Positions 3,680 to 18,811 of a stretch of 18,811 bases of DNA are shown here, piece after piece (position 1 is the first letter of the stretch; the number at the start of each line of letters is the position of its first letter). Below the pieces are notes generated by a model that saw nothing but the letters and a program-made list of their open reading frames with translations, searched no databases and had not been told where the DNA came from. Source of the DNA: a virus; UHGV virus genome UHGV-0168127. One strand, written 5' to 3'. The translations under genes and the position numbers were made by a program.

Positions 3680-4168
3680 TTATTTGATAAGAAGTGAAGG
3701 TTTCCCAACTTTGAGTTGAGCGCCGGGGATATTTATTCCTGCTTTTAGTTGGTGTTTGATTGCCAGTTTGTCGGCTTTAATTGTCGTTTCAAACTCAACG
3801 TATTCAGGAGGAATGGCGCTTGCGTCGATGATTTCTACAATTTCTGACGGTTTGCGGATTGTTACCTGGTGAATACCTGCTCGAATATTTTTCTTGCCAA
3901 CCATTTCAAGCGATGACGCTATATATGATTTGATGCTGTCAATCTTATTTTGGATTACTGCGGCTCGCTCATTCAGTGACTTTGCCTCTTCCTTGAGGCG
4001 TTCAGCATAACCAGATTCATTTTTAATAATGGCAAGAAGTTGCTCTATTTTATCGGTAAATTCTCCTTCCATGCCTTCTATTGTGTCAGCAATCATCTCT
4101 GGTTCTAAATCTGAATCCATCAATTTTGCGTATTCATTGGCAATTTCATACAGTTTGCTCACTGGCAA
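3680..4168 (-). CDS. Siphovirus Gp157-family protein (162 aa)
   Basis: Length and acidic N-terminal helix followed by a K-rich coiled coil match the Gp157 family; overlaps and is co-oriented with the RecT gene as in other RecT modules. Confidence 0.65.
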   Translation of the reverse strand: MPVSKLYEIANEYAKLMDSDLEPEMIADTIEGMEGEFTDKIEQLLAIIKNESGYAERLKEEAKSLNERAAVIQNKIDSIKSYIASSLEMVGKKNIRAGIHQVTIRKPSEIVEIIDASAIPPEYVEFETTIKADKLAIKHQLKAGINIPGAQLKVGKPSLLIK

Positions 4169-5057
4169 CCTCCAGTTTCGCTTTGCATTCTATGTAAATG
4201 GCTTGTACGTTCTGCTGCAATTTCATTCCAGATGTCAGGCGATATGCTTCTGCAAAATATCGCTTCAAATCATCCATGTTTTCTGCCTGAGCCATTTCAT
4301 CGCAAAGAAGTTGTGCTTTATCCATTATTTCCTGCTGGCGTTTCCGTTCATCTTCGCGGATATCTTCCTCTGATTTGTGCGGCATAACTGGTTCGGTCCA
4401 CACGCCTTCTTCTTCGTTTAGTACGTGAATAGCACTATCAAGGCGTGATGCCTTAGGCCAATACTTGCTTGCACGCTTTACGACTGTCTTTCGCGCCATC
4501 TCATTCCAGTGATTTACCCATGGTCCTTTATCGCTGAATGCCGCCTTGCTTGTTTTCCTTACAGCCTCAATTTCAGCCAGACTCATCTCTTCCGTTAGAT
4601 AATCACCTGCTGGCGTCTTAACTGTGCAGTAAACGCCAACGATATCACCACGGTCACCGAAGGCGTTGTATTTATGGGTTGGTGCTTTATCAAGCCCGTT
4701 TGACTCATAGGTATCGTTAGCATGAACAAGTTTTGCCTGACCCCATGAGATAACACCAGACTCCATTGCAATATGGAGCAATCCCATATAGCTGATATCA
4801 AGGCACACCATGCCGTCGCGAGGAACCAGATAAGCCAGTTTGCTGGCCGGGTTTAAGGTGATGCCGATCGCCGCAACATTGATGATGGCGTTCTGTGCGC
4901 TGGTTGGATTTGCCAGTGCTGTTTTAGCCAGGTAATCGTTTTTCTGGAAATACTGAATTGCAAACTGGCTTTCCTTAGCCCATGTCACCGTCTGTTCAGT
5001 CAATGCTCCGCAGAATAACTGCTCCTGCTGTTTAACGAATTCAACGATATTGCTCAT
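4146..5057 (-). CDS. recT: RecT-family single-strand annealing recombinase (303 aa)
   Basis: GPWVNHWNEMARKTVVKRASKYWP closely resembles the conserved RecT segment GPWVTHWEEMAKKTAIRRLFKYLP; gene sits where lambda has bet. Confidence 0.8.
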   Translation of the reverse strand: MSNIVEFVKQQEQLFCGALTEQTVTWAKESQFAIQYFQKNDYLAKTALANPTSAQNAIINVAAIGITLNPASKLAYLVPRDGMVCLDISYMGLLHIAMESGVISWGQAKLVHANDTYESNGLDKAPTHKYNAFGDRGDIVGVYCTVKTPAGDYLTEEMSLAEIEAVRKTSKAAFSDKGPWVNHWNEMARKTVVKRASKYWPKASRLDSAIHVLNEEEGVWTEPVMPHKSEEDIREDERKRQQEIMDKAQLLCDEMAQAENMDDLKRYFAEAYRLTSGMKLQQNVQAIYIECKAKLEVASEQTV

Positions 5058-7928: not shown

Positions 7929-8141
7929 TTATTCGCGAGCTTTGAGCATGGCATCAGCAATAAAGTAGGCATCATCTGCTAATTCTTTGTACTGTGGTGA
8001 ATTCTGTCCACCACCAAAGGAATGTCCGTCCCATCTGCGCACTATTGCTGCCATAGCCTTAGCAGCGAAGTAATCACGTAATGTCGCATCACTTGCCATT
8101 TCTGGGCGTTTGATATCTTCTTCATAAAACTCGCACATCAT
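7929..8141 (-). CDS. Hypothetical protein (70 aa)
   Basis: Track ORF; its start overlaps the stop of the upstream gene. Confidence 0.4.
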   Translation of the reverse strand: MMCEFYEEDIKRPEMASDATLRDYFAAKAMAAIVRRWDGHSFGGGQNSPQYKELADDAYFIADAMLKARE

Positions 8142-9441: not shown

Positions 9442-10146
9442 TTAACCGTGTTTTCTGTATGTCTGAGGCATGCTACCAATCACCTTGCCGAATATGAGTA
9501 TCCTGTTCATTTCTTCTTTTTCGATTGGCTCCCACGGGCGATAAGTCTGATTGTCGGAGATGACCAACAGCTTATCTTTCATCTTCTGGAGGCGTTTAAC
9601 GTGGGAAGTATCGTCGTAGATAAAGGCGTAGATCCCGTCACCATCAAAATGTTGGACGCTGATGTCGACGAACAATAAGTCGCCTGGTTCAATGGTCCCG
9701 GACATGCTGTCTCCGCGAACATTAATGATTCTGATCTGCTCAGCCTTCCTGCCATTAAACATCCGACGAGCATCTTCCACTGAGTATTCCACGGATCTAA
9801 GCACCTCTACAAATTCGCTGTTGATGGCTCCTGGCCCGGCGCTTACGTAAAAGTCTAGCGCCTCAATGCGGAATGTGTCAGTAGGGGCCAGCTCTGTTTT
9901 CGGCTGCGAAATTGCGGGCATTTGACCATCTTCACGCATTGGGCCAACTCCGGTTGAAAGCCACTCAGTGCGAACGCCAAGCGCATTGGCGATCTCAACG
10001 ATTTTAGTTGAGCCTCGGGCATTGCCACTGGTCAGCCTCCAGATGGTGGGTTGAGCAACGCCAGACGCCTTAGCTAAAGCGCCCTGAGACATGCCAGATA
10101 GTTCCATCGCCTGATTCAGGCGTTCTGCAAGAGTTTCTTTTTTCAT
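9442..10146 (-). CDS. cI: CI-type repressor: N-terminal HTH plus C-terminal S24 (LexA-like) autopeptidase domain
   Basis: Track ORF trimmed to the ATG at 10146 (MKKETLAERL...); HTH segment MSQGALAKASGVAQPTIWRL; GDSM and KRL motifs consistent with a Ser/Lys catalytic dyad; divergent from the cro-like gene across an operator region. Confidence 0.85.
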   Translation of the reverse strand: MKKETLAERLNQAMELSGMSQGALAKASGVAQPTIWRLTSGNARGSTKIVEIANALGVRTEWLSTGVGPMREDGQMPAISQPKTELAPTDTFRIEALDFYVSAGPGAINSEFVEVLRSVEYSVEDARRMFNGRKAEQIRIINVRGDSMSGTIEPGDLLFVDISVQHFDGDGIYAFIYDDTSHVKRLQKMKDKLLVISDNQTYRPWEPIEKEEMNRILIFGKVIGSMPQTYRKHG

Positions 10147-10154
10147 GAGTTTTA

Positions 10155-10226
10155 ATTTATACGCTTGCGTATTGATGGTCAAAACACGTTTAGCTATTGC
10201 CTAAATCAATACGCATTGCTATTATC
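10155..10226. promoter_or_regulatory. OR-like operator and divergent promoter region (candidate pRM leftward and pR rightward)
   Basis: Palindrome ATACGCTTGCGTAT (10159..10172) and a related site near 10207..10226. Rightward promoter candidate: -35 TTGCCT (10197..10202), 17-nt spacer, -10 TATTAT (10220..10225). Leftward candidate: -35 TTGACC (complement of 10177..10182), -10 ATAAAT (complement of 10155..10160), placing the start at or near the cI ATG (leaderless, as for lambda pRM). Confidence 0.5.
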
Positions 10227-10257
10227 AATTCACACCAATACTCATAGGAATTGGAAG

Positions 10258-10485
10258 ATGACGAACAAAACAATCCAGCGCGCCATTGATATCGCTGGTA
10301 GCCAGAAGAAATTAGCCGACCTTTGCGGCGTTGCTCAGCCGACGGTATGGCGCTGGTTGCACGGCGGCGGCATTGATGCCCGCTACGTAATGAAGATTGT
10401 CACTGCAACAAACGGCAAGCTAAAACCAGCAGATATCCGTCCAGACCTCGCCCAGCTGCTTGAGGCGAATAACACAGCCGCTTAA
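10258..10485 (+). CDS. cro: Cro-like HTH regulator (75 aa)
   Basis: Track ORF 10165..10485 trimmed to the ATG at 10258; HTH segment SQKKLADLCGVAQPTVWRWLHG; divergent from cI. Confidence 0.6.
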   Translation: MTNKTIQRAIDIAGSQKKLADLCGVAQPTVWRWLHGGGIDARYVMKIVTATNGKLKPADIRPDLAQLLEANNTAA

Positions 10486-11081: not shown

Positions 11082-11317
11082 TGGGAAGTATCAAAAATGG
11101 CGAAAGCCAGTCTGCGTCAACAGAACTGGCCTTCAGATGCAAATCGTGTGCACTCATTGCAGGAGGAATAATGGCAAAAAATCCACGCTATTACCATACC
11201 GCTGTACATAAAAACATAACCCGCGACCGCTTCATCCGCTCGGTTAATCCGATTGTGGCAGAGAAGATGCGCGCCATCCTGGAAGAACTGAAACGTAAGG
11301 AGAGTGGCCGTGGGTAA
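11078..11317 (+). CDS. Hypothetical small protein (79 aa, or 48 aa from the internal ATG at 11171)
   Basis: Track ORF; strong AGGAGG RBS precedes the internal ATG at 11171, so the shorter form may be the real product. Confidence 0.3.
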   Translation: MMGSIKNGESQSASTELAFRCKSCALIAGGIMAKNPRYYHTAVHKNITRDRFIRSVNPIVAEKMRAILEELKRKESGRG

Positions 11318-12209
11318 CGTATCCAATTTAGCCGAAGCCAGAGAGGCCAGAAGGCTCCAGAAACCGCGCACGAATGACGGTAAGGGGTTTGCCTTGCTGC
11401 ACCGTAAAATTATGGATGTGCCGTTCTACAAGGACGCTGAGGCGGCTCATTTATGGGTTCACTTGCTCCTGCGCGCTAATCACGAACAGACACTGGTATC
11501 TACTGATGTTGGCGATGTGATCTGCGAGCGCGGAGAGTTCATCACCGGGCGAAACACACTGGCAATGGAAACGGGTTTGACCGCTGATCGCGTTAAATCC
11601 CTTCTCCGTAAATTCCAGAATCTGGGCATGATCACCACCAAATCGAACAACCGTTTTACTGTTCTAAAAGTGGTCAAATATGACGAATATCAGTCAAATT
11701 TTTGTCCAGCAGATGTCCAGCCAGCGTCCAGCCCAAACATAGTCGTACCAATGCCTGCGGAGGTGGAGTGTCCAGCCGATGTCCAGCCAGTGTCCACAGA
11801 TAACAATATATTAAATAACTTACTACCTAACGGTAGTAAGTATGTCGCAAATGACCAGAAACCCGCTGAAGAGAAAAAGTCTCGTTTGTCATGCGATGAA
11901 GTATGGCAATGCCTGAAAGACGAACTGCCTGAAGCACGGGGATGGAGATGCCTCACTGATGAGCGACGCAATCTGATCCGCACATTCTGGGGTAAGGCTA
12001 ATAAGATTGCCCGCAACCTGGACGGCAAGCCGATGGATATGGACGGTTTCAGAAGCTATCTGCGTTACATCGCTCAGAACTGCCGCTGGATGCTTGAAGA
12101 CCGACCAGACCAGAAGTCTGGGAAGACCTGGCGCCGCATGAAATTCGATAAGTTCCTGACCGAAAAGCTCTACATCGAAGTGCGCGAGGGGGATCGTGAT
12201 GACCGCTGA
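11304..12209 (+). CDS. Replication initiator (lambda O-like in position; winged-helix N-terminal domain)
   Basis: Precedes and overlaps the DnaB-like helicase gene; contains iteron-like repeats internally, as lambda O contains ori. GTG start at 11304 or 11310. Confidence 0.6.
   Translation: MAVGNVSNLAEAREARRLQKPRTNDGKGFALLHRKIMDVPFYKDAEAAHLWVHLLLRANHEQTLVSTDVGDVICERGEFITGRNTLAMETGLTADRVKSLLRKFQNLGMITTKSNNRFTVLKVVKYDEYQSNFCPADVQPASSPNIVVPMPAEVECPADVQPVSTDNNILNNLLPNGSKYVANDQKPAEEKKSRLSCDEVWQCLKDELPEARGWRCLTDERRNLIRTFWGKANKIARNLDGKPMDMDGFRSYLRYIAQNCRWMLEDRPDQKSGKTWRRMKFDKFLTEKLYIEVREGDRDDR
11702..11799. repeat. Iteron cluster (putative origin of replication) inside the initiator gene
   Basis: Six copies of (A/G)TGTCCAGCC-like units in two groups of three with about 11-bp spacing (11704..11733 and 11768..11798), followed by an AT-rich stretch at 11800..11832. 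Confidence 0.55.
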
Positions 12210-13632
12210 TTTCATGGCTGTACCACAAAACCTCGAAGCAGAGCAGAGCGTTATCGGTGGCCTGCTGCTGGATGATGACAACAGCGAGCGAGTCCAGAAG
12301 GTTCTGGCGATGCTCAAGCCTGAATCGTTCTACAGCCGACCTCACCAGCTGATCTTTGCCGAGATGCGCCAGATGTTCCGCGACAACAAGCCAGTCGATG
12401 GTCTGACATTGTTCGACGCGCTCGAAAGCAAAGGGCTCGCGGAGCAGGTAGGTGGCTTTGCTTACCTGGCGGAGATCGCCAAGAACACTCCCAGCGCTGC
12501 AAACATCGTGGCATACGCTGCGTCAGTCCGGGAAGCCGCAATGGAGCGCTACGGTATCAGCCGCCTGACCGAAGCTACTGAGCTGCTGTATTCCCGCAAT
12601 GGCATGAGCGCCACGCAGAAGTACGAGGCCATTCAGGGTATTTTCACCCAGCTCGCAGACCATTCAAAAACCGGTAGTCGCCGTGGGTTGCGGTCGTTCG
12701 GCGAGGTTATGGATGACTGGGTAGCAGATCTGGAGAAACGCTTTGACCCTTCAGGCGAACAGCGCGGCATGAGCACCGGCATCCCGTCACTCGACCGGCT
12801 GCTGGCGCCGAAAGGTCTGGTTAAAGGCTCTCTGTTCGTGATTGGCGCAAGGCCAAAGATGGGCAAGACAACCCTGTACGGTCAGATGGCGATCAACTGC
12901 GCGGTTCGTGAGAAAAAGCCAGCGCTGATGTTCAGCCTCGAAATGCCGGGCGACCAGATCCTCGAAAAACTGGTTGGTCAGAAGTCTGGAGTTAACCCGA
13001 GCATTTTTTACATGCCAGCCACGGATGACGCCGATGACCAGTACCAGGGCGATTACGACGGCGACTTTAAGAAGGCGATCGCCACCGCCGGGCGATTGAG
13101 TGAAATCGACATGCTGTACATCGACGATACTCCTGGCCTGTCACTGGCGCACATCGTTAGCGAAAGCCGCCGAATCAAGCGCGAGAAGGGCTGCGTAGGA
13201 ATGATTTTGGTTGACTACCTGACTCTGATGACCGCCGAAAAAGCCGACCGTAATGACCTTGCCTACGGGATGATCACCAAAGGGTTGAAGAACCTCGCTA
13301 AAGAGCTTGGCTGCGTCGTCGTGCTGCTGACCCAGCTCAACCGCGAACTGGAGAAGCGAGTGAATAAACGCCCGTTACCGAGCGATTCCCGCGACACAGG
13401 ACAGATTGAGCAGGACTGCGACTACTGGGTTGGTATCCACCGGGAAGGTGCTTTCGATGACAGCGTGCCGCCGGGAGAAACCGAGTTAATCCTGCGACTC
13501 AATCGCCACGGCAGTACCGGAACGGTTTATTGCAATCAGATCAACGGGGCAATTTACGACACAGACCAGCAGGCCGCCGCCGCAGAACGACGCGGGCGTG
13601 AGCAGCAGCCGAAAAAGAAAGGGGGATTCTGA
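12199..13632 (+). CDS. DnaB-family replicative helicase
   Basis: N-terminal EAEQSVIGGLLLD motif and Walker A GARPKMGKT typical of DnaB; start overlaps the initiator stop. Confidence 0.9.
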   Translation: MTADFMAVPQNLEAEQSVIGGLLLDDDNSERVQKVLAMLKPESFYSRPHQLIFAEMRQMFRDNKPVDGLTLFDALESKGLAEQVGGFAYLAEIAKNTPSAANIVAYAASVREAAMERYGISRLTEATELLYSRNGMSATQKYEAIQGIFTQLADHSKTGSRRGLRSFGEVMDDWVADLEKRFDPSGEQRGMSTGIPSLDRLLAPKGLVKGSLFVIGARPKMGKTTLYGQMAINCAVREKKPALMFSLEMPGDQILEKLVGQKSGVNPSIFYMPATDDADDQYQGDYDGDFKKAIATAGRLSEIDMLYIDDTPGLSLAHIVSESRRIKREKGCVGMILVDYLTLMTAEKADRNDLAYGMITKGLKNLAKELGCVVVLLTQLNRELEKRVNKRPLPSDSRDTGQIEQDCDYWVGIHREGAFDDSVPPGETELILRLNRHGSTGTVYCNQINGAIYDTDQQAAAAERRGREQQPKKKGGF

Positions 13633-13973
13633 TGACCATAACAATCCGCGGGCAGATTCTTGCAGCCCTGCGTAACAACCAGGGCCTGAACAGTGCTCGT
13701 ATTGCCAGCATGATCGGCATGACCACCAAAAAGATTTCCGGCCCGTTAAGTACGTTGTTTGCAGATGGCCTGATCGAGTTCGAAGGCAAGCACGGACAGC
13801 GGCTTTATCGGCTGACCGATTACGGCATGAAATACGCACCAGAAACAATCCCGGCTATGCCGAAGGGAAATTCGAAGCTGGTGCAGCGTACAGAGGCAAA
13901 CGTGATCTGCCAGGAGTGCCGCAACAGCGCGGCGATGAGAAGAATTTTAAGCGTATACGGGGTGAGAGCATGA
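13632..13973 (+). CDS. Winged-helix (MarR-like) putative DNA-binding protein (113 aa)
   Basis: Start overlaps the helicase stop (TGATG); HTH-like segment LNSARIASMIGMTTKKISGPLSTL. Confidence 0.4.
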   Translation: MTITIRGQILAALRNNQGLNSARIASMIGMTTKKISGPLSTLFADGLIEFEGKHGQRLYRLTDYGMKYAPETIPAMPKGNSKLVQRTEANVICQECRNSAAMRRILSVYGVRA

Positions 13974-14584
13974 AAAATAATACACAGCCAGCACTGAAAG
14001 AACGAATCGAAAAGGCACTTGAAGACTTCACCAAAGGCCGCGCCAGCATGCATGTTCCTCCGCTTGATACCGATGTTGATGTGGTGCTGGCGGAATGCAG
14101 TGACCGATTATCAGAGCTTAAAGCCAGATGCGCGGCGCTGGCTGCGGAGAATGCGATGTTGAAGCAACGGACACAGCAACTTATCGACATCATTAGCAAT
14201 ACTGACAATGACTACTGCATGTGTGGTTCTGCTATGAAAGACCACGTGCACAGCGGATGTGGTTATCCTACTGGCATGTTCGATTATTACTACAACCAGT
14301 GGCTGGAGTCAGATAACAAAACCCCAGCCACCGATGCTTTCCTGGCTGAAGTGAAGACTGAAGCACGCAAGGAGGGAGCTTACTTTGTGGCGAACAGAAT
14401 GCTGGCTGCCTGGGAAGCTGGTTTTATTGATGATACTGCGAAGAACGCCGCGGATATTGCCAGGATGATTATTACCTCTACTGAGTTTATGGCTAATGCG
14501 CCGGAAGGCGATTTTGACCGCTCATTCTCTGATGGCGTTCTCGAAGATATCGCCGCCCAGCTTCGCAAAGGAGTGCAGTCATGA
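13970..14584 (+). CDS. Ea22-like protein (204 aa), paralog of 2490..3176
   Basis: Track ORF 13916..14584 trimmed to the ATG at 13970 (ATGA overlap with upstream stop); shares ARCAALAAENAMLKQ and [12 protein letters not shown] motifs with the left-arm copy. Confidence 0.55.
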   Translation: MKNNTQPALKERIEKALEDFTKGRASMHVPPLDTDVDVVLAECSDRLSELKARCAALAAENAMLKQRTQQLIDIISNTDNDYCMCGSAMKDHVHSGCGYPTGMFDYYYNQWLESDNKTPATDAFLAEVKTEARKEGAYFVANRMLAAWEAGFIDDTAKNAADIARMIITSTEFMANAPEGDFDRSFSDGVLEDIAAQLRKGVQS

Positions 14585-15180
14585 GCAACAACATTCAAGT
14601 GCTGAAAGCTTATTACGTGCAGGGTGATGAGTACGGGATTATCCGTTTCGCTACAAGTAACGTCGTGGCTCGCCGTGAGGGTGCGAACGAACTGGAAGAG
14701 GAATTCAACTGCGTATCATGCAAGCGCTTTCATGGTGCTGATAAATATGCAGAACTTGGTCGCGTTCCTTCTCGCGTTCTGGTTGAAGAGTTTGGCTTTT
14801 GGCAAGAGTGCACCTATTGCAGATGTCACGTTGATGAAGAAACAGAAGGGCGCGTGTGGGTTGGCGATTCTGTTTATTGCGATATGGAGTGCGAGGCGCG
14901 CTGGATTAATCATCGCCTTGATTGCGAAGCGGAACGCAAGCGTACTCATGAGGCAGAGCAGGCAGCAATTGCGGAAGCGGAAGCAAAGTTCCCTGGAATT
15001 ACAGACGTCACGGCCTACATCGGCCACAAGAAAGACATCACGGTTTATTTTAGATTCCCTGGTGGATTAGAAAAGGCATCATGGACTGTTGGCGAGAATC
15101 ATGCGGGTACTAGTCACGATGATGGAGAGGCGTTCAAATCGTACATCAACTCAATTCGTCAAGTGGAGGCAGCCCAATGA
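14581..15180 (+). CDS. Cysteine-rich hypothetical protein (199 aa), possible zinc-binding
   Basis: CxxC...CTYCRCH...CDMEC cysteine clusters; translationally coupled to both neighbours. Confidence 0.45.
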   Translation: MSNNIQVLKAYYVQGDEYGIIRFATSNVVARREGANELEEEFNCVSCKRFHGADKYAELGRVPSRVLVEEFGFWQECTYCRCHVDEETEGRVWVGDSVYCDMECEARWINHRLDCEAERKRTHEAEQAAIAEAEAKFPGITDVTAYIGHKKDITVYFRFPGGLEKASWTVGENHAGTSHDDGEAFKSYINSIRQVEAAQ

Positions 15181-15545
15181 GCAACATCGACAAACAGGCG
15201 CTGCGTGAAATCGCAGCGGCAGCAGTTGGCGCACATGAGCGCCTTAGTGTTATGCCGCCTGATGACATTTTCGATATCTCACTGGCAGAAGGAACTCAGC
15301 TTGATGCAGATATCACTGCCTTGAACGCGCTGAACTCCGCAGCAAACCCCACTACCGTGCTGGCGCTGCTGGATGAGCTGGAATCCAAAGACAGGCGCAA
15401 CGCTGAGCTGGAGGCGAAACTCCAAGCCACTGACAAATTGCATGATAGCGCGTTCCGTCATGGTCTCCAGCATGGTTTTAGTTACGGTCAGACAGATGAT
15501 CAAGCAGGATTTGAGAAAGCCATCCAAGCGTATGGGCAGCAGTGA
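15177..15545 (+). CDS. Ead/Ea22-like N-terminal-domain protein (122 aa), paralog of 1777..2493
   Basis: MSNIDKQALREIAAAA and ANPTTVLALLDELE motifs. Confidence 0.5.
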   Translation: MSNIDKQALREIAAAAVGAHERLSVMPPDDIFDISLAEGTQLDADITALNALNSAANPTTVLALLDELESKDRRNAELEAKLQATDKLHDSAFRHGLQHGFSYGQTDDQAGFEKAIQAYGQQ

Positions 15546-15559
15546 AAAGGAGAGTGAGT

Positions 15560-15736
15560 ATGAAATACGAAATCCCGGAATCAGAAGATATTGAATGGCA
15601 GCAGGCTATGCTCCGTGAAATAGACAGCGCCCTTGACGTCTTGCGTGATGAGCATGAGCACGCAGTGGTGGTAGAAGAAATCATCAATGATATCACCGCG
15701 AGAATAGCATCACTCCGCGCGTACTCTGGATACTGA
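15560..15736 (+). CDS. Hypothetical small acidic protein (58 aa)
   Basis: Track ORF 15542..15736 trimmed to the ATG at 15560 preceded by AAGGAG. Confidence 0.35.
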   Translation: MKYEIPESEDIEWQQAMLREIDSALDVLRDEHEHAVVVEEIINDITARIASLRAYSGY

Positions 15737-15746
15737 GGACTAACCC

Positions 15747-16454
15747 ATGAGCACCTTCACCAAAGAGCAGTTAATCGAAAAGCTTCAGCACAGAATTTCT
15801 GTCGCATCAAGATTTCCGGAGTCAGAAAAAACGCAAATGGATCTTGAACTGGCGCGTATCGCGCTGGCATCACTCGAAGCGGAGCCCTACGGATATGTCC
15901 ATAAAGCAGCTTATGAGCAAGCAGGAAGTTGTGGATTATCGGGCGACCATGAAGCCTATCGAGATAGCTCAACTCACATCGCCGTTTACACCGCCACGCC
16001 AGCGCCGGTATCTGTGCCCGCTGCGATGGAAATTGATGATGACTTTGACAGCGCGTTTGAACACGGAAAAGCTGTCGGCTGGAACGCCTATCGCGCCGCC
16101 ATGCTTCAGGCCGAACCTGTAAGTAATAGTGATGAGTTACCGCTGGACTATCTGCAAGGACACAAAGACGGCCTGGAGTGGGCTGCACAATTGGCAGAAG
16201 CCAATCATCCGCAAACAGGTGACTGGTTGTACGACGACCAAATCGATCTTGCCAGGGCGATTCGCAAAGGTCCGGATATGCCTACTGTTCAGGCTGGCAA
16301 CTCTCCGGTAACTCCGGATGGTTCAGCTAACATATTGCGGCGCTGGTTAGCATTTGGTCGCGCAATGCAAAGTTCTGGCAGTCAGTTACCTCGCCACCTG
16401 ATTGCAGAAACCGAGTCCATGCTCGCAGCAGCACCGCAGCAGGAGGTGAAGTGA
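15747..16454 (+). CDS. Protein with DUF551-associated N-terminal domain (235 aa), paralog of the N-terminus of 1024..1581
   Basis: ELARIALASLE and GNSPVTPDG motifs shared with the left-arm DUF551-like protein; C-terminus differs. Confidence 0.45.
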   Translation: MSTFTKEQLIEKLQHRISVASRFPESEKTQMDLELARIALASLEAEPYGYVHKAAYEQAGSCGLSGDHEAYRDSSTHIAVYTATPAPVSVPAAMEIDDDFDSAFEHGKAVGWNAYRAAMLQAEPVSNSDELPLDYLQGHKDGLEWAAQLAEANHPQTGDWLYDDQIDLARAIRKGPDMPTVQAGNSPVTPDGSANILRRWLAFGRAMQSSGSQLPRHLIAETESMLAAAPQQEVK

Positions 16455-16642
16455 GTATGAGTGCATCACTTATAACCGCCTTCAATCAAAGTGCAAATCC
16501 AAGCAATGAGCAGGTTGTTGTGTTCGGCTGGATTGCTGAGTATTTCGAAAGCATTTTCGACGATGAATCCGCTAGGTATTGCAGGAATATTTCTGAATCA
16601 CTCAAAAATCAGGTTTCTGCTCAACAGGAGGTGAAGTCGTGA
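16451..16642 (+). CDS. Hypothetical small protein (63 aa)
   Basis: Start embedded in the conserved junction CAGGAGGTGAAGTGA; may begin at the ATG at 16457 instead. Confidence 0.35.
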   Translation: MSMSASLITAFNQSANPSNEQVVVFGWIAEYFESIFDDESARYCRNISESLKNQVSAQQEVKS

Positions 16643-16851
16643 GCAAGCACATCATCAAATATGACTATCGAGAGGGAGTTAAACTCCCTAAGCACGAGAT
16701 TGAGACATGGTGCGGTCATCGGCCAGGGTCATTCGAATGGCTTTTTCAGGATGCTCAGCATGCGCTATTGAGCATTGAGCAGGGAACGCTGCTTGTTCCT
16801 TGCAAGAATTGTCTGGCAGCAATCATCAAAACGGCGCAGGTGGTGAAGTGA
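16639..16851 (+). CDS. Hypothetical small protein (70 aa) with CxxC and CxxC-like cysteines
   Basis: GTG start overlapping the upstream stop in the second copy of the junction motif. Confidence 0.35.
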   Translation: MSKHIIKYDYREGVKLPKHEIETWCGHRPGSFEWLFQDAQHALLSIEQGTLLVPCKNCLAAIIKTAQVVK

Positions 16852-17129
16852 TGGACTCCTTCGCGAAATATACGATCATTGACTGGATAGCATTCCTTCA
16901 GGTTTTGCTCATCTGGTTTTATATGGCTTACAGGAGTGGGCAGTGGATTGTCAGTGTAGCCTGTAGCAGGGGATGGCGTTGGTGGAACCGAAAGAATAAA
17001 AAAGCACTGGCATTGGATTCGTTTTACGAAGCATTCAATCTTAACAGCCTTCAGCCTGGTTCTGTCATTGTAGTCACCACTCAAAGCGGCATGACCATTC
17101 AGATTCATAAACCAAAAGAGGAAAAATGA
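16851..17129 (+). CDS. Small membrane protein (92 aa, one predicted transmembrane helix)
   Basis: Track ORF 16800..17129 trimmed to the ATG at 16851 (ATGA coupling in the third junction copy); hydrophobic segment IIDWIAFLQVLLIWFYMAY. Confidence 0.4.
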   Translation: MDSFAKYTIIDWIAFLQVLLIWFYMAYRSGQWIVSVACSRGWRWWNRKNKKALALDSFYEAFNLNSLQPGSVIVVTTQSGMTIQIHKPKEEK

Positions 17130-17215
17130 TGTGGCCTATATGTGTTAATTGCGGACGGATGTGCCTATCTGGATGGTGCCGAAAGTGCGACAAATGCACG
17201 AAGCAAAGACAATAA
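17126..17215 (+). CDS. Cysteine-rich 29-aa peptide (zinc-ribbon-like)
   Basis: Manual ORF MMWPICVNCGRMCLSGWCRKCDKCTKQRQ with six cysteines in CxxC-like spacing; ATGA overlap with the upstream stop. Confidence 0.3.
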   Translation: MMWPICVNCGRMCLSGWCRKCDKCTKQRQ

Positions 17216-17287
17216 CAATCCTCGCACTCGCGGGGATTTCTTTTATCTGAACTCGCTACGGCGGGTTTTGTTTTATGGAGATGATAA

Positions 17288-17455
17288 ATGCACTTTCGAG
17301 TCACAGGTGAATGGAATGGAGAACCATTCAACAGGGTTATCGAAGCAGAGGACTTCAACGACTGCTATGACCACTGGATGATATGGGCGCAGATAGCACA
17401 TGCAGACGTAACCAATATTCGAATTGAAGAACTGAAAGAACACAAAACCGCCTGA
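17288..17455 (+). CDS. Small conserved 55-aa lambdoid protein (right copy), function unknown
   Basis: Manual ORF MHFRVTGEWNGEPFNRVIEAEDFNDCYDHWMIWAQIAHADVTNIRIEELKEHKTA; GGAG RBS; lies inside the 255-bp inverted repeat. Confidence 0.6.
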   Translation: MHFRVTGEWNGEPFNRVIEAEDFNDCYDHWMIWAQIAHADVTNIRIEELKEHKTA

Positions 17456-17468
17456 TGGCGGTTTTTTC
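17444..17468 (+). terminator. Rho-independent terminator between the 55-aa gene and xis
   Basis: AAAACCGCC-TGAT-GGCGGTTTT perfect 9-bp stem followed by TTTTTTC. Confidence 0.6.
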
Positions 17469-17494
17469 TTGCGTGTAATTGCGGAGACTTTGCG

Positions 17495-17713
17495 ATGTAC
17501 TTAACACTTCAGGAGTGGAACGCACGCCAGCGGCGCCCAAGAAGCCTTGAAACAGTTCGTCGATGGGTACGCGAGTGCAGGATATTCCCTCCTCCGGTTA
17601 AGGATGGAAGAGAGTATCTGTTCCACGAATCAGCGGTAAAGGTTGACTTAAATCGACCAGTAACAGGTAGCCTTTTGAAGAGGATCAGAAATGGGAAGAA
17701 GGCGAAGTCATGA
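17495..17713 (+). CDS. xis: Lambda-type excisionase Xis (72 aa)
   Basis: Translation MYLTLQEWNARQRRPRSLETVRRWVRECRIFPPPVKDG... matches phage lambda Xis as I recall it; overlaps the int start as in lambda. Confidence 0.9.
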   Translation: MYLTLQEWNARQRRPRSLETVRRWVRECRIFPPPVKDGREYLFHESAVKVDLNRPVTGSLLKRIRNGKKAKS

Positions 17714-18761
17714 GCGCCGGGATTTACCCCCTAACCTTTATATAAGAAACAATGGATATTACTGCTACAGGGACCCAAGGACGGGTAAAGAGTTCGGATT
17801 AGGCAGAGACAGGAGGATAGCAATTACTGAAGCAATACAGGCAAACATTGAGTTATTTTCAGGACACAAACACAAGCCTCTGACAGCAAGAATCAACAGT
17901 GATAATTCTGTTACGTTACATTCATGGCTTGATCGCTACGAAAAAATCCTGGCCAGCAGAGGAATCAAGCAGAAGACACTCATAAATTACATGAGCAAAA
18001 TTAAAGCAATAAGGAGGGGTCTGCCTGATGCTCCACTTGAAGACATCACCACAAAAGAAATTGCGGCAATGCTCAATGGATACATAGACGAGGGCAAGGC
18101 GGCGTCAGCCAAGTTAATCAGATCAACACTGAGCGATGCATTCCGAGAGGCAATAGCTGAAGGCCATATAACAACAAACCCGGTCGCTGCCACTCGCGCA
18201 GCAAAATCAGAGGTAAGGAGATCAAGACTTACAGCTGACGAATACCTGAAAATTTATCAAGCAGCAGAATCATCACCATGTTGGCTCAGACTTGCAATGG
18301 AACTGGCTGTTGTTACCGGGCAACGAGTCGGTGATTTATGCGAAATGAAGTGGTCTGATATCGTAGATGGATATCTTTATGTCGAGCAAAGCAAAACAGG
18401 CGTAAAAATTGCCATCCCAACAGCATTGCATGTTGATGCTCTCGGGATATCAATGAAGGAAACACTTGATAAATGCAAAGAGATTCTTGGTGGAGAAACC
18501 ATAATTGCATCTACTCGTCGTGAACCGCTTTCATCCGGCACAGTATCAAGGTATTTTATGCGCGCACGAAAAGCATCAGGTCTTTCCTTCGAAGGGGATC
18601 CGCCTACCTTTCACGAGTTGCGCAGTTTGTCTGCAAGACTCTATGAGAAGCAGATAAGCGATAAGTTTGCTCAACATCTTCTCGGGCATAAGTCGGACAC
18701 CATGGCATCACAGTATCGTGATGACAGAGGCAGGGAGTGGGACAAAATTGAAATCAAATAA
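17691..18761 (+). CDS. int: Lambda-type tyrosine integrase Int (356 aa)
   Basis: Translation MGRRRSHERRDLPPNLYIRNNGYYCYRDPRTGKEFGLGRDRRIAITEAIQ... essentially matches lambda Int from memory, including the C-terminal catalytic region (HELRSLSARLY...LLGHKSDTMASQY). Confidence 0.95.
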   Translation: MGRRRSHERRDLPPNLYIRNNGYYCYRDPRTGKEFGLGRDRRIAITEAIQANIELFSGHKHKPLTARINSDNSVTLHSWLDRYEKILASRGIKQKTLINYMSKIKAIRRGLPDAPLEDITTKEIAAMLNGYIDEGKAASAKLIRSTLSDAFREAIAEGHITTNPVAATRAAKSEVRRSRLTADEYLKIYQAAESSPCWLRLAMELAVVTGQRVGDLCEMKWSDIVDGYLYVEQSKTGVKIAIPTALHVDALGISMKETLDKCKEILGGETIIASTRREPLSSGTVSRYFMRARKASGLSFEGDPPTFHELRSLSARLYEKQISDKFAQHLLGHKSDTMASQYRDDRGREWDKIEIK

Positions 18762-18811
18762 TGATTTTATTTTGACTGATAGTGACCTGTTCGTTGCAAC
18801 AAATTGATAAG
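18762..18811. other. attP P' arm with arm-type Int-binding sites; the core lies just beyond the window end
   Basis: TGATTTTATTTTGACTGATAGTGACCTGTTCGTTGCAACAAATTGATAAG matches the lambda attP P' arm; complement strand carries tandem arm-type sites CAGTCAAAAT (18769..18778) and AGGTCACTAT (18779..18788). Confidence 0.75.

Follow-up and report, generated by a model that had tools for sequence, protein, structure and literature searches.

Why should three consecutive boundaries between small genes of one virus genome be built from the same few bases? The question is raised by UHGV-0168127, a virus genome of 18,811 nucleotides (nt), the whole of which was analyzed and is called the window here. 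An EaA-like gene, two genes of 63 and 70 amino acids (aa) and a DUF4752 gene follow one another in this window, and each of the three joints between them carries a copy of the sequence CAGGAGGTGAAGT, hereafter the motif; the copies are designated J1, J2 and J3. The reading that we favor, to which we assign a probability of roughly 60%, is that in the motif a translational-coupling junction has turned into a shared seam of the mosaic exo-xis ('ea') region of enterobacterial lambdoid/P22-like prophages.

The motif was found in exact form at positions 16440 and 16625 and, with a single alteration, at 16837, and the window contains no other site for it in the coding orientation. The three copies lie exactly where the first-pass annotation, made from the sequence alone, had placed them, and they comprise the following features (SD, Shine-Dalgarno sequence):

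16419..16439, + strand: extended conserved tail ATGCTCGCAGCAGCACCGCAG (MLAAAPQ), adjoining the 5' side of J1
16440..16454, + strand: junction copy 1 (J1), CAGGAGGTGAAGTGA; codons QEVK and a TGA stop at 16452-16454
16441-16449, + strand: extended SD of J1, AGGAGGTGA
16625..16642, + strand: junction copy 2 (J2), CAGGAGGTGAAGTCGTGA; codons QEVKS and a stop at 16640-16642
16626-16634, + strand: SD of J2, with the GTG start of the next gene at 16639-16641 (GTGA overlap)
16837..16851, + strand: junction copy 3 (J3), CAGGTGGTGAAGTGA; codons QVVK and a stop at 16849-16851
16851-16853, + strand: ATG start after J3 (TGATG overlap), with a weakened SD

A degenerate query, CAGGWGGTGAAGT, allowing up to two mismatches, gave five matches in the window against 0.54 expected, a number that was attained by none of 200 dinucleotide-preserving shuffles; three of the matches were on the + strand with no mismatch and two were on the opposite strand with two mismatches. 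An independent repeat search recovered the same three-copy family, with spacings of 185 and 212 nt. When the start regions of 34 open reading frames (ORFs) of the window were compared in pairs, the 13-mer of J1 and J2 was the longest word common to any pair and J1/J3 was one of two pairs with 10 nt in common, the shared word being 7 nt or shorter in 541 of the 561 pairs. The frame of the upstream ORF is identical at all three copies (CAG GAG/GTG GTG AAG [TCG] TGA), and the ORF translations bore out the proposal that each copy encodes the C-terminal Q-E/V-V-K of the upstream gene, the ends before the stop being QEVK at J1, QEVKS at J2 and QVVK at J3.

Each copy had also been held to contain the ribosome-binding site of the next gene together with an overlapping stop and start, and this part of the proposal was sustained with two reservations. 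Over its 9 nt, AGGAGGUGA is perfectly complementary to the 3' end of 16S rRNA, and the predicted duplex between SD and anti-SD amounts to -16.2 kcal/mol (9 bp) at both J1 and J2, compared with -2.7 to -11.1 kcal/mol at the 12 other + strand gene starts tested; the J1/J2 SD is the strongest of the operon. At J3 the signal is weakened to GGTGG and -11.8 kcal/mol. This variant is rare (7 of 213 junction-like matches in the loci described below). A Chi-like activity of J3 was considered and set aside, as its CAGGTGG has one mismatch in 7 bases to GCTGGTGG and is a minority form only. The second reservation concerns the overlap, which is present at J2 (GTGA) and J3 (TGATG), both with the start on the stop and 7 nt from GGAGG to the start. 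At J1 the candidate starts are a GTG at 16451 that overlaps the stop and an ATG at 16457, 2 nt beyond it; the latter is the start annotated for gp33 of phage mEp043 and is also where the phrog_23654 profile begins, at residue 3 of the 63-aa ORF.

All three joints have an SD that is embedded, at a functional spacing, in the coding region upstream and a stop that overlaps or adjoins the next start, as at coupled junctions, an arrangement that is consistent with translational coupling of the genes across the motif. No structure sequestering the SD was predicted with significance at the copies when folds were compared with those of shuffles. Programmed frameshifting that would fuse neighboring ORFs was set aside on inspection of the sequence, as no slippery heptamer was seen in the motif. 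Classical translational coupling through overlapping UGAUG, AUGA or GUGA is well known, for example from the trp operon, and the motif resembles it in having the SD within the upstream ORF and a stop that overlaps or abuts the next start. Ordinary coupled junctions are, however, gene-specific, whereas an identical 15- to 17-mer recurs here in dozens of unrelated gene pairs.

A scan of IMG/VR for the exact 15-mer gave at least 120 loci, and the counts in this paragraph that derive from it refer to the matches listed. Among 121 occurrences, 110 form the end of an ORF of 40 codons or more in the QEVK-stop frame and 90 have an ORF of at least 40 codons downstream. Clustering of the 150-nt flanks resulted in at least 78 upstream and at least 66 downstream clusters, and the 115 instances contained at least 95 distinct upstream/downstream pairs. 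TG directly follows the 15-mer, creating the TGATG overlap, in 75 of 94 distinct downstream contexts. Positional conservation reaches about 12 nt 5' of the 15-mer (consensus GCAGCACCGCAG, AAPQ) and ends right after the ATG; a conserved stretch of about 27 nt ending at the ATG is thereby set between otherwise dissimilar flanks, as is characteristic of a boundary sequence. Among the families found upstream are DUF551, dATP/dGTP pyrophosphohydrolase and DUF1627, together with several EaA-like proteins that consist of multiple modules and have no Pfam match. The J1-type tail MLAAAPQ ends many unrelated proteins, and two large tail classes were observed, ...AAAPQQEVK and ...PLPEPPQEVK. A 49-nt query made up of a DUF551 tail and the motif matched 855 phage records (in 405 cases along 80% or more of the query), mostly from Salmonella, Escherichia (including Shiga toxin (Stx) phages) and Klebsiella. 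Five IMG/VR loci (L017, L045, L092, L116 and L027) contain other ORFs, of 41-140 aa, that are flanked on both sides by the motif (up to two mismatches); these small two-sided cassettes are unrelated to the genes of the window.

Further samples of loci were picked by homology to the 70-aa gene, to DUF4752 and to the 63-aa gene, regardless of whether the motif was present. The genes at the joints in the window are:

15747..16454, + strand: EaA-like gene, 235 aa, two modules, tail MLAAAPQQEVK before the stop; PHROG 60/5117/660
16451..16642, + strand: cassette A, 63 aa (61 aa from ATG 16457), function unknown; phrog_23654, E=7e-47
16639..16851, + strand: cassette B, 70 aa, function unknown, a motif copy on each side; phrog_4090, E=5e-42
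16851..17129, + strand: DUF4752 gene, 92 aa, downstream of J3; PF15944, E=1.3e-35

In 50 IMG/VR loci with homologs of the 70-aa gene, the motif or a variant of it differing by 1-2 nt was located at both ends of most homologs down to about 73% aa identity, and it was weaker or absent at the most distant ones. Next to the 70-aa gene, at least 12 different genes were seen upstream and at least nine downstream, and the 18-mer form of J2 precedes it behind at least 12 different upstream genes. The motif was also found 5' of all 70 distinct DUF4752 loci examined, in eight sequence variants; 19 types of gene lie upstream, and every joint is made through the motif. For the 63-aa gene, at least four upstream types were observed. 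Junction-like matches in the oriented loci numbered 213 on the coding strand and none on the opposite strand. Between EaA/DUF551 and DUF4752, states with no, one and two cassettes all exist, namely DUF551-motif-DUF4752 in many Stx phages, DUF551-motif-70 aa-motif-DUF4752, and the order seen in the window. Units bounded by the motif assort independently in the case of the 70-aa gene and DUF4752, and the downstream partner of the 63-aa gene is constant.

These results bear on the suggestion of the first-pass annotation that the motif is a conserved linker allowing small gene cassettes to be swapped by recombination. The search of gene junctions in related prophages revealed reuse of the motif with many different ORFs between its copies; homologous regions elsewhere possess it, both at the 70-aa homologs and in the 70 DUF4752 loci, and the three ORFs are not inherited as one block, with the fixed succession of the 63-aa and 70-aa genes as a partial exception. 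Reuse and reassorting neighbors hence support the suggestion, in which crossovers at the motif are the putative step. In two IMG/VR loci (L214 and L101), the 70-aa cassette contains a premature stop (after ...WCGHRPWSFE) and the flanking motif copies are intact.

The positions at which similarity between genomes begins and ends were informative about that step. Phage matches to the window obtained with megablast begin at 16426/16433 (J1) and at 16835/16836 (J3), the latter being the start of most DUF4752 matches from lambdoid phages, those of Stx type included. In none of 1081 pairs of loci with DUF4752 in common does the upstream similarity stop short of the motif; it ends 14-17 nt before the ATG, at the 5' edge of the motif, in 431 pairs, and in the rest it runs on into shared DUF551 tails or whole genes. 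Similarity breakpoints hence coincide with the motif, as those of boundary sequences do. Junction variants in the DUF4752 loci are common to different types of upstream gene, resulting in 12 four-gamete incompatibilities. The double variant GAGATGAAGTAA stands behind six to seven different upstream genes, and its GAGATG change, which is linked to a single-nucleotide polymorphism at +38 of DUF4752 (r2 = 0.61), stands behind seven. Since GAGATG is linked downstream and reassorts upstream, the crossovers would have taken place 3' of the variable part of the upstream gene and 5' of motif position 7, within the conserved tail. The sequence comparisons thus argue for crossovers in the conserved tail or the 5' half of the motif, and from the shared joints, the breakpoint positions and the four-gamete patterns we infer recombination at the motif.

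The mechanism that we propose would operate on two levels. On the RNA, AGGAGGUGA would pair with 9 nt of the 16S rRNA 3' end and the next start (ATG or GTG) lies 7 nt after GGAGG, at or next to the upstream stop, such that a ribosome ending one small gene would start the next one, or fresh 30S subunits would be recruited efficiently; because the SD signal is inside the upstream ORF, its last residues are fixed as Q-E-V-K. On the DNA, the 15-18 bases would serve as an identity patch between otherwise unrelated genes, a patch that is lengthened in many genes by a conserved tail of 12-30 nt (...AAPQ or ...HWMPLPEPP). Through exchange in this patch, whichever gene lies upstream could be linked in frame to whichever gene lies downstream, with the ribosome-binding site and the stop/start retained, and the 63-aa, 70-aa and like cassettes could in this manner be gained, lost or replaced. 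The enzymes would presumably be annealing proteins of the RecT/Erf/Red-beta type or RecA. The shortest stretch that is paired efficiently measures 23-27 bp with Red-beta and 31-34 bp with RecA (PMC3945230), and only the extended tails (27-45 bp) attain such a length; phage Rad52-like recombinases act on short, diverged sequences (PMC3945230). As the window encodes RecT and phage annealing proteins have relaxed specificity, the mechanism is plausible, and the RecT of the window is a candidate enzyme for short-homology exchange. The features of the patch are thus compatible with homology-dependent crossovers within it and with an enzyme of this class. It appears more likely that the seam is an opportunistic by-product of a conserved expression signal than that it is a device selected for swapping or evolvability. 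We tentatively entertain the possibility that the QEVK-stop/SD junction and its tail form a standardized 'plug' for homology-based exchange of exo-xis cassettes that is kept partly for swapping, with which RecT, Erf or Red-beta could swap, insert or delete small genes and fuse or split modules with no loss of expression.

A number of observations weigh against the reading of the motif as a shared seam. It was present at only 60 of the 753 distinct coupled junctions in the loci sampled by homology, which makes it one specific joint family and not a universal one. The 63-aa gene was followed by the 70-aa gene in 32 of 32 loci and never occurred without it. DUF4752 provides the sole comparison of turnover between a motif side and a non-motif side, with eight upstream against about three to four downstream types (seven clusters by the same clustering). 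The bare 15-18-bp copies, and the 13-nt identity of J1 and J2, are below the published minimal pairing lengths. Moreover, nine of 15 bases are set by complementarity to 16S rRNA and three by the stop, so that selection alone could keep much of the motif, and conservation of the tail is partly ordinary protein homology because many upstream genes end in a DUF551 or ...AMLAAAP module. A 17-mer scan of genome contigs, used as a convergence control, gave at least 120 matches, mostly in unrelated metagenome-assembled genomes (MAGs) and in one enterobacterium; in 110 of the 120 matches listed, the exact 17-mer CAGGAGGTGAAGTGATG, here in MAGs from unrelated phyla, lies in front of an ORF of 40 codons or more, indicating that the core can arise independently. 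In these MAGs the 17-mer often closes an ORF as well. The M/L tail-gene junction of lambda, CAGGTGGTGAACTGATG (13415-13431 of its genome), is a look-alike with two mismatches and the same stop/start overlap, and is probably convergent.

Such observations lend themselves to an account in which the motif is an expression signal only, a near-optimal coupled start kept by selection, and in which shuffling proceeds via illegitimate recombination and selection, as in the Hendrix model. The 9-bp anti-SD match of AGGAGGUGA, the use of the exact 17-mer as SD and ATG in unrelated phyla and a length of 15 bp, less than the minimal pairing length, all agree with that account, as do independent junctions of the GGAGGTGA type, found at lambda M/L and, lacking the rest of the motif, at 8141 on the - strand of the window. 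The motif is also missing where no coupled gene follows: the DUF551 genes eaA of P22 (23758-24711) and hkaE of HK620 (2065-2598) end in ...HWM(P/Q)LP(E/D)PPL and a stop, after which there is a non-coding gap and no motif, and this indicates that the motif goes with the downstream start. We nonetheless regard selection on expression alone as a rather doubtful explanation. Illegitimate joints should vary, yet at least 95 gene pairs have the same joint in one register and frame, a result that illegitimate recombination would not readily yield; elsewhere in the same operon, junctions have different and weaker SDs; and junction variants reassort among upstream genes yet stay linked to the downstream allele. 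The non-SD positions and about 12 nt upstream (AAPQ) are conserved too, and no enrichment of APQ/EPP tails upstream of the 17-mer was detected in the unrelated MAGs among the matches listed. Given these conserved non-SD bases, the upstream tail and the reassorting variants, convergence is insufficient.

The presence of (A)APQQEVK at the end of many proteins, in the two large classes given above, could alternatively mean that the C-terminus is a functional tag (for stability, localization or partner binding) and the DNA motif its by-product. This is improbable, as residue changes are tolerated (QEMK, QEAK, QEVN, QVVK, QELK, QGVR, QEVKS/P) and it is the GGAGG-like bases and the arrangement of stop and start that persist; QEVK is missing from DUF551 proteins that have no coupled gene downstream, and conservation stops exactly at the next start codon. 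We consider it very improbable that the motif is a structured RNA or a binding site, i.e., the target of a small RNA, an RNA-binding protein or a site-specific recombinase or nuclease (attC- or PeSL-like), although a repeated short sequence does flank small cassettes and the segment 16388-16400, ACCTCGCCACCTG, is complementary to J1 (16440-16452) at 11 of 13 positions and is paired with it in the minimum free energy fold. That fold is no better than those of shuffles (z = -1.27, with -0.43 and +0.10 around J2 and J3), and one match with two mismatches is expected by chance. No Rfam family matched the window, and a structured RNA was ruled out on these two grounds. No inverted repeat or palindrome was found at the motif copies, and the sole site-specific recombinase nearby is a lambda-type Int with its own att site; PeSL-like and integron-like elements were ruled out because the copies have no promoter, terminator or palindrome. 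Finally, the short and regular distances between the three copies (185 and 212 nt) could recall a local duplication in which the genes are diverged tandem paralogs keeping their 3' ends, a notion that merits almost no credence. The best blastp alignment covered 57 aa at 23% identity (E = 0.02-0.075, with four sequences in the database), there was no similarity beyond the tail, and each gene occurs elsewhere with other neighbors. The tail carriers (the EaA-like gene and the 63-aa and 70-aa cassettes) are mutually unrelated by blastp and belong to separate PHROGs, and paralogy of the three genes was ruled out on this basis.

The shared seam that we favor is to be viewed against the organization of the rest of the window, the principal features of which are listed below.

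4146..5057, - strand: RecT-family single-strand annealing protein; PF03837, E=3.7e-32
9442-10182, - strand: cI
10165-10485, + strand: cro
11304-12209, + strand: O-like gene
12196-13632, + strand: DnaB helicase
13916-15545, + strand: Ea22-like genes
17129-17215, + strand: unannotated Cys-rich mini-ORF, 28 aa, MWPICVNCGRMCLSGWCRKCDKCTKQRQ; an ORF only, TGATG-coupled to DUF4752
17495-17713, + strand: xis
17691-18761, + strand: int, lambda-type Int

Positions 17212-18811 align with lambda xis-int at 97.75% identity to within about 24 nt of the attP core, and because the right end of the window matches in this way the motif is assigned to the accessory region upstream of xis (exo-xis/"ea") in a lambda-type prophage, a region that is mosaic and largely uncharacterized (PMC10834534). 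The closest phage match, mEp043/mEp213, has the same EaA-gp33-gp32-DUF4752 order and the same three junctions. The 28-aa mini-ORF is followed on its 3' side by two terminator-like hairpins, a 55-aa gene, xis and int; in one IMG/VR locus (L235), this mini-ORF directly follows the 70-aa gene through the motif. As no promoter or terminator was found at the motif copies, the genes are taken to be co-transcribed. The architecture of the window is unusual, in that a rightward cro-O-helicase operon runs straight into an exo-xis-type region ending in lambda-type xis-int. A second complete operon of the leftward pL type is located on the - strand and includes RecT, an Ea22-like gene and, near 50-250, a xis-like ORF; the motif does not occur in this operon. 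No complete E. coli genome was found to cover at least 80% of window positions 12800-17600.

The EaA-like gene (15747..16454) had no Pfam match, and none of the three upstream genes of the window matched PF04448 (DUF551), which many junction carriers elsewhere do possess. The EaA-like gene has its C-terminal module in common with EaA of mEp043 from position 16112 onward. An internal mosaic joint was observed at 16089-16121, after the peptide NAYRAAMLQ, and it is here, at 16112, that the similarity to EaA of mEp043 sets in. Across IMG/VR loci, over 20 different modules were seen downstream of this EaA-like N-terminal module in in-frame fusions, and ...AAMLAAAP segments serve either as inter-domain linkers or as gene ends. 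These arrangements suggest gene fusion and fission at ...AAMLAAAP seams.

Sequences with comparable properties have been discussed before. The boundary, or linker, hypothesis for lambdoid phages goes back to Susskind and Botstein (1978), with their modular theory, and to the work on HK620 of Clark et al. (2001; J Mol Biol 311:657), as cited in PMC3029335. Like the motif, lambdoid boundary sequences are short, are conserved amid dissimilar genomes, lie at the edges of exchangeable units and have been proposed as foci of homologous recombination; unlike them, the motif bounds single small genes in one accessory region and consists of a coding tail, an extended SD and a stop/start. In HK620, seven sequences reportedly bound functional modules. 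The motif, searched for with up to two mismatches, was absent from HK620, P22 and lambda's exo-xis region, and it is therefore probably not one of the seven.

Cluster K mycobacteriophages possess a start-associated sequence (SAS), a conserved 13-bp motif that includes the ribosome-binding site and is reused upstream of a subset of gene starts. The SAS differs in sequence and host, and it is not known to serve as a coding tail or mosaic joint. The early-promoter stem-loops (PeSLs) of T4-type phages are repeated expression signals that flank small non-essential ORFs, and recombination between their copies shuffles genes (PMC2839356; Arbiol et al., 2010). The motif is likewise a repeated short expression signal beside small ORFs, those of PeSLs being in hyperplastic regions; however, a PeSL is an intergenic promoter and terminator stem-loop, whereas the motif is intragenic and translational and has no promoter, terminator or stable hairpin. 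Phage Rad52-like recombinases are a demonstrated route to lambdoid mosaicism where homology is short or diverged (De Paepe et al., 2014; PMC3945230), with substrates in that work hundreds of bp long; the bare motif is shorter than the 23-27-bp segment. With integron attC cassettes the locus has in common small promoterless ORFs, a repeated boundary element and independent assortment, but no dedicated integrase, imperfect palindrome or folded single-strand site was found at the motif, and any cassette exchange here would be homology-based, unlike that of integrons. The concept of boundary sequences is known; the motif was not found in a phage context in the literature searched, and the QEVK/SD motif appears to be undescribed.

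A second junction family was noticed on the - strand of the window at about 1775-1805, after an Ea22-like gene (1777-2547), where the tail ...AGIRIKGE and its stop, GCTGGCATTCGCATCAAAGGAGAGTGA, are followed by GATG. This tail is common to the window, the hkaG/hkaF junction of HK620 and the end of lambda ea22, and P22 eaD has a related form. The Ea22-type family suggests that standardized joints are a general feature of the exo-xis region.

One practical consequence concerns annotation, in that C-terminal QEVK tails are junction-encoded and should be interpreted with caution. If the 'plug' described above, kept partly for swapping, proved correct, it would be a recombinase-independent functional counterpart of integron cassettes and T4 PeSLs. 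Since 1978, the debate on mosaicism has opposed homologous exchange at short linkers to random illegitimate joints filtered by selection, and linkers are usually called undetectable at most joints (PMC3029335). The motif constitutes a concrete, abundant and precisely delimited joint, with 15-17 bases in one frame, at least 78 upstream and at least 66 downstream clusters, and nested states of no, one and two cassettes, and it offers a directly testable substrate for separating a translational from a recombinational role. Genes of the exo-xis region affect the lysis-lysogeny decision, also in Stx phages (PMC10834534), and the motif accounts for the fact that comparisons of gene content here break off precisely where genes end.

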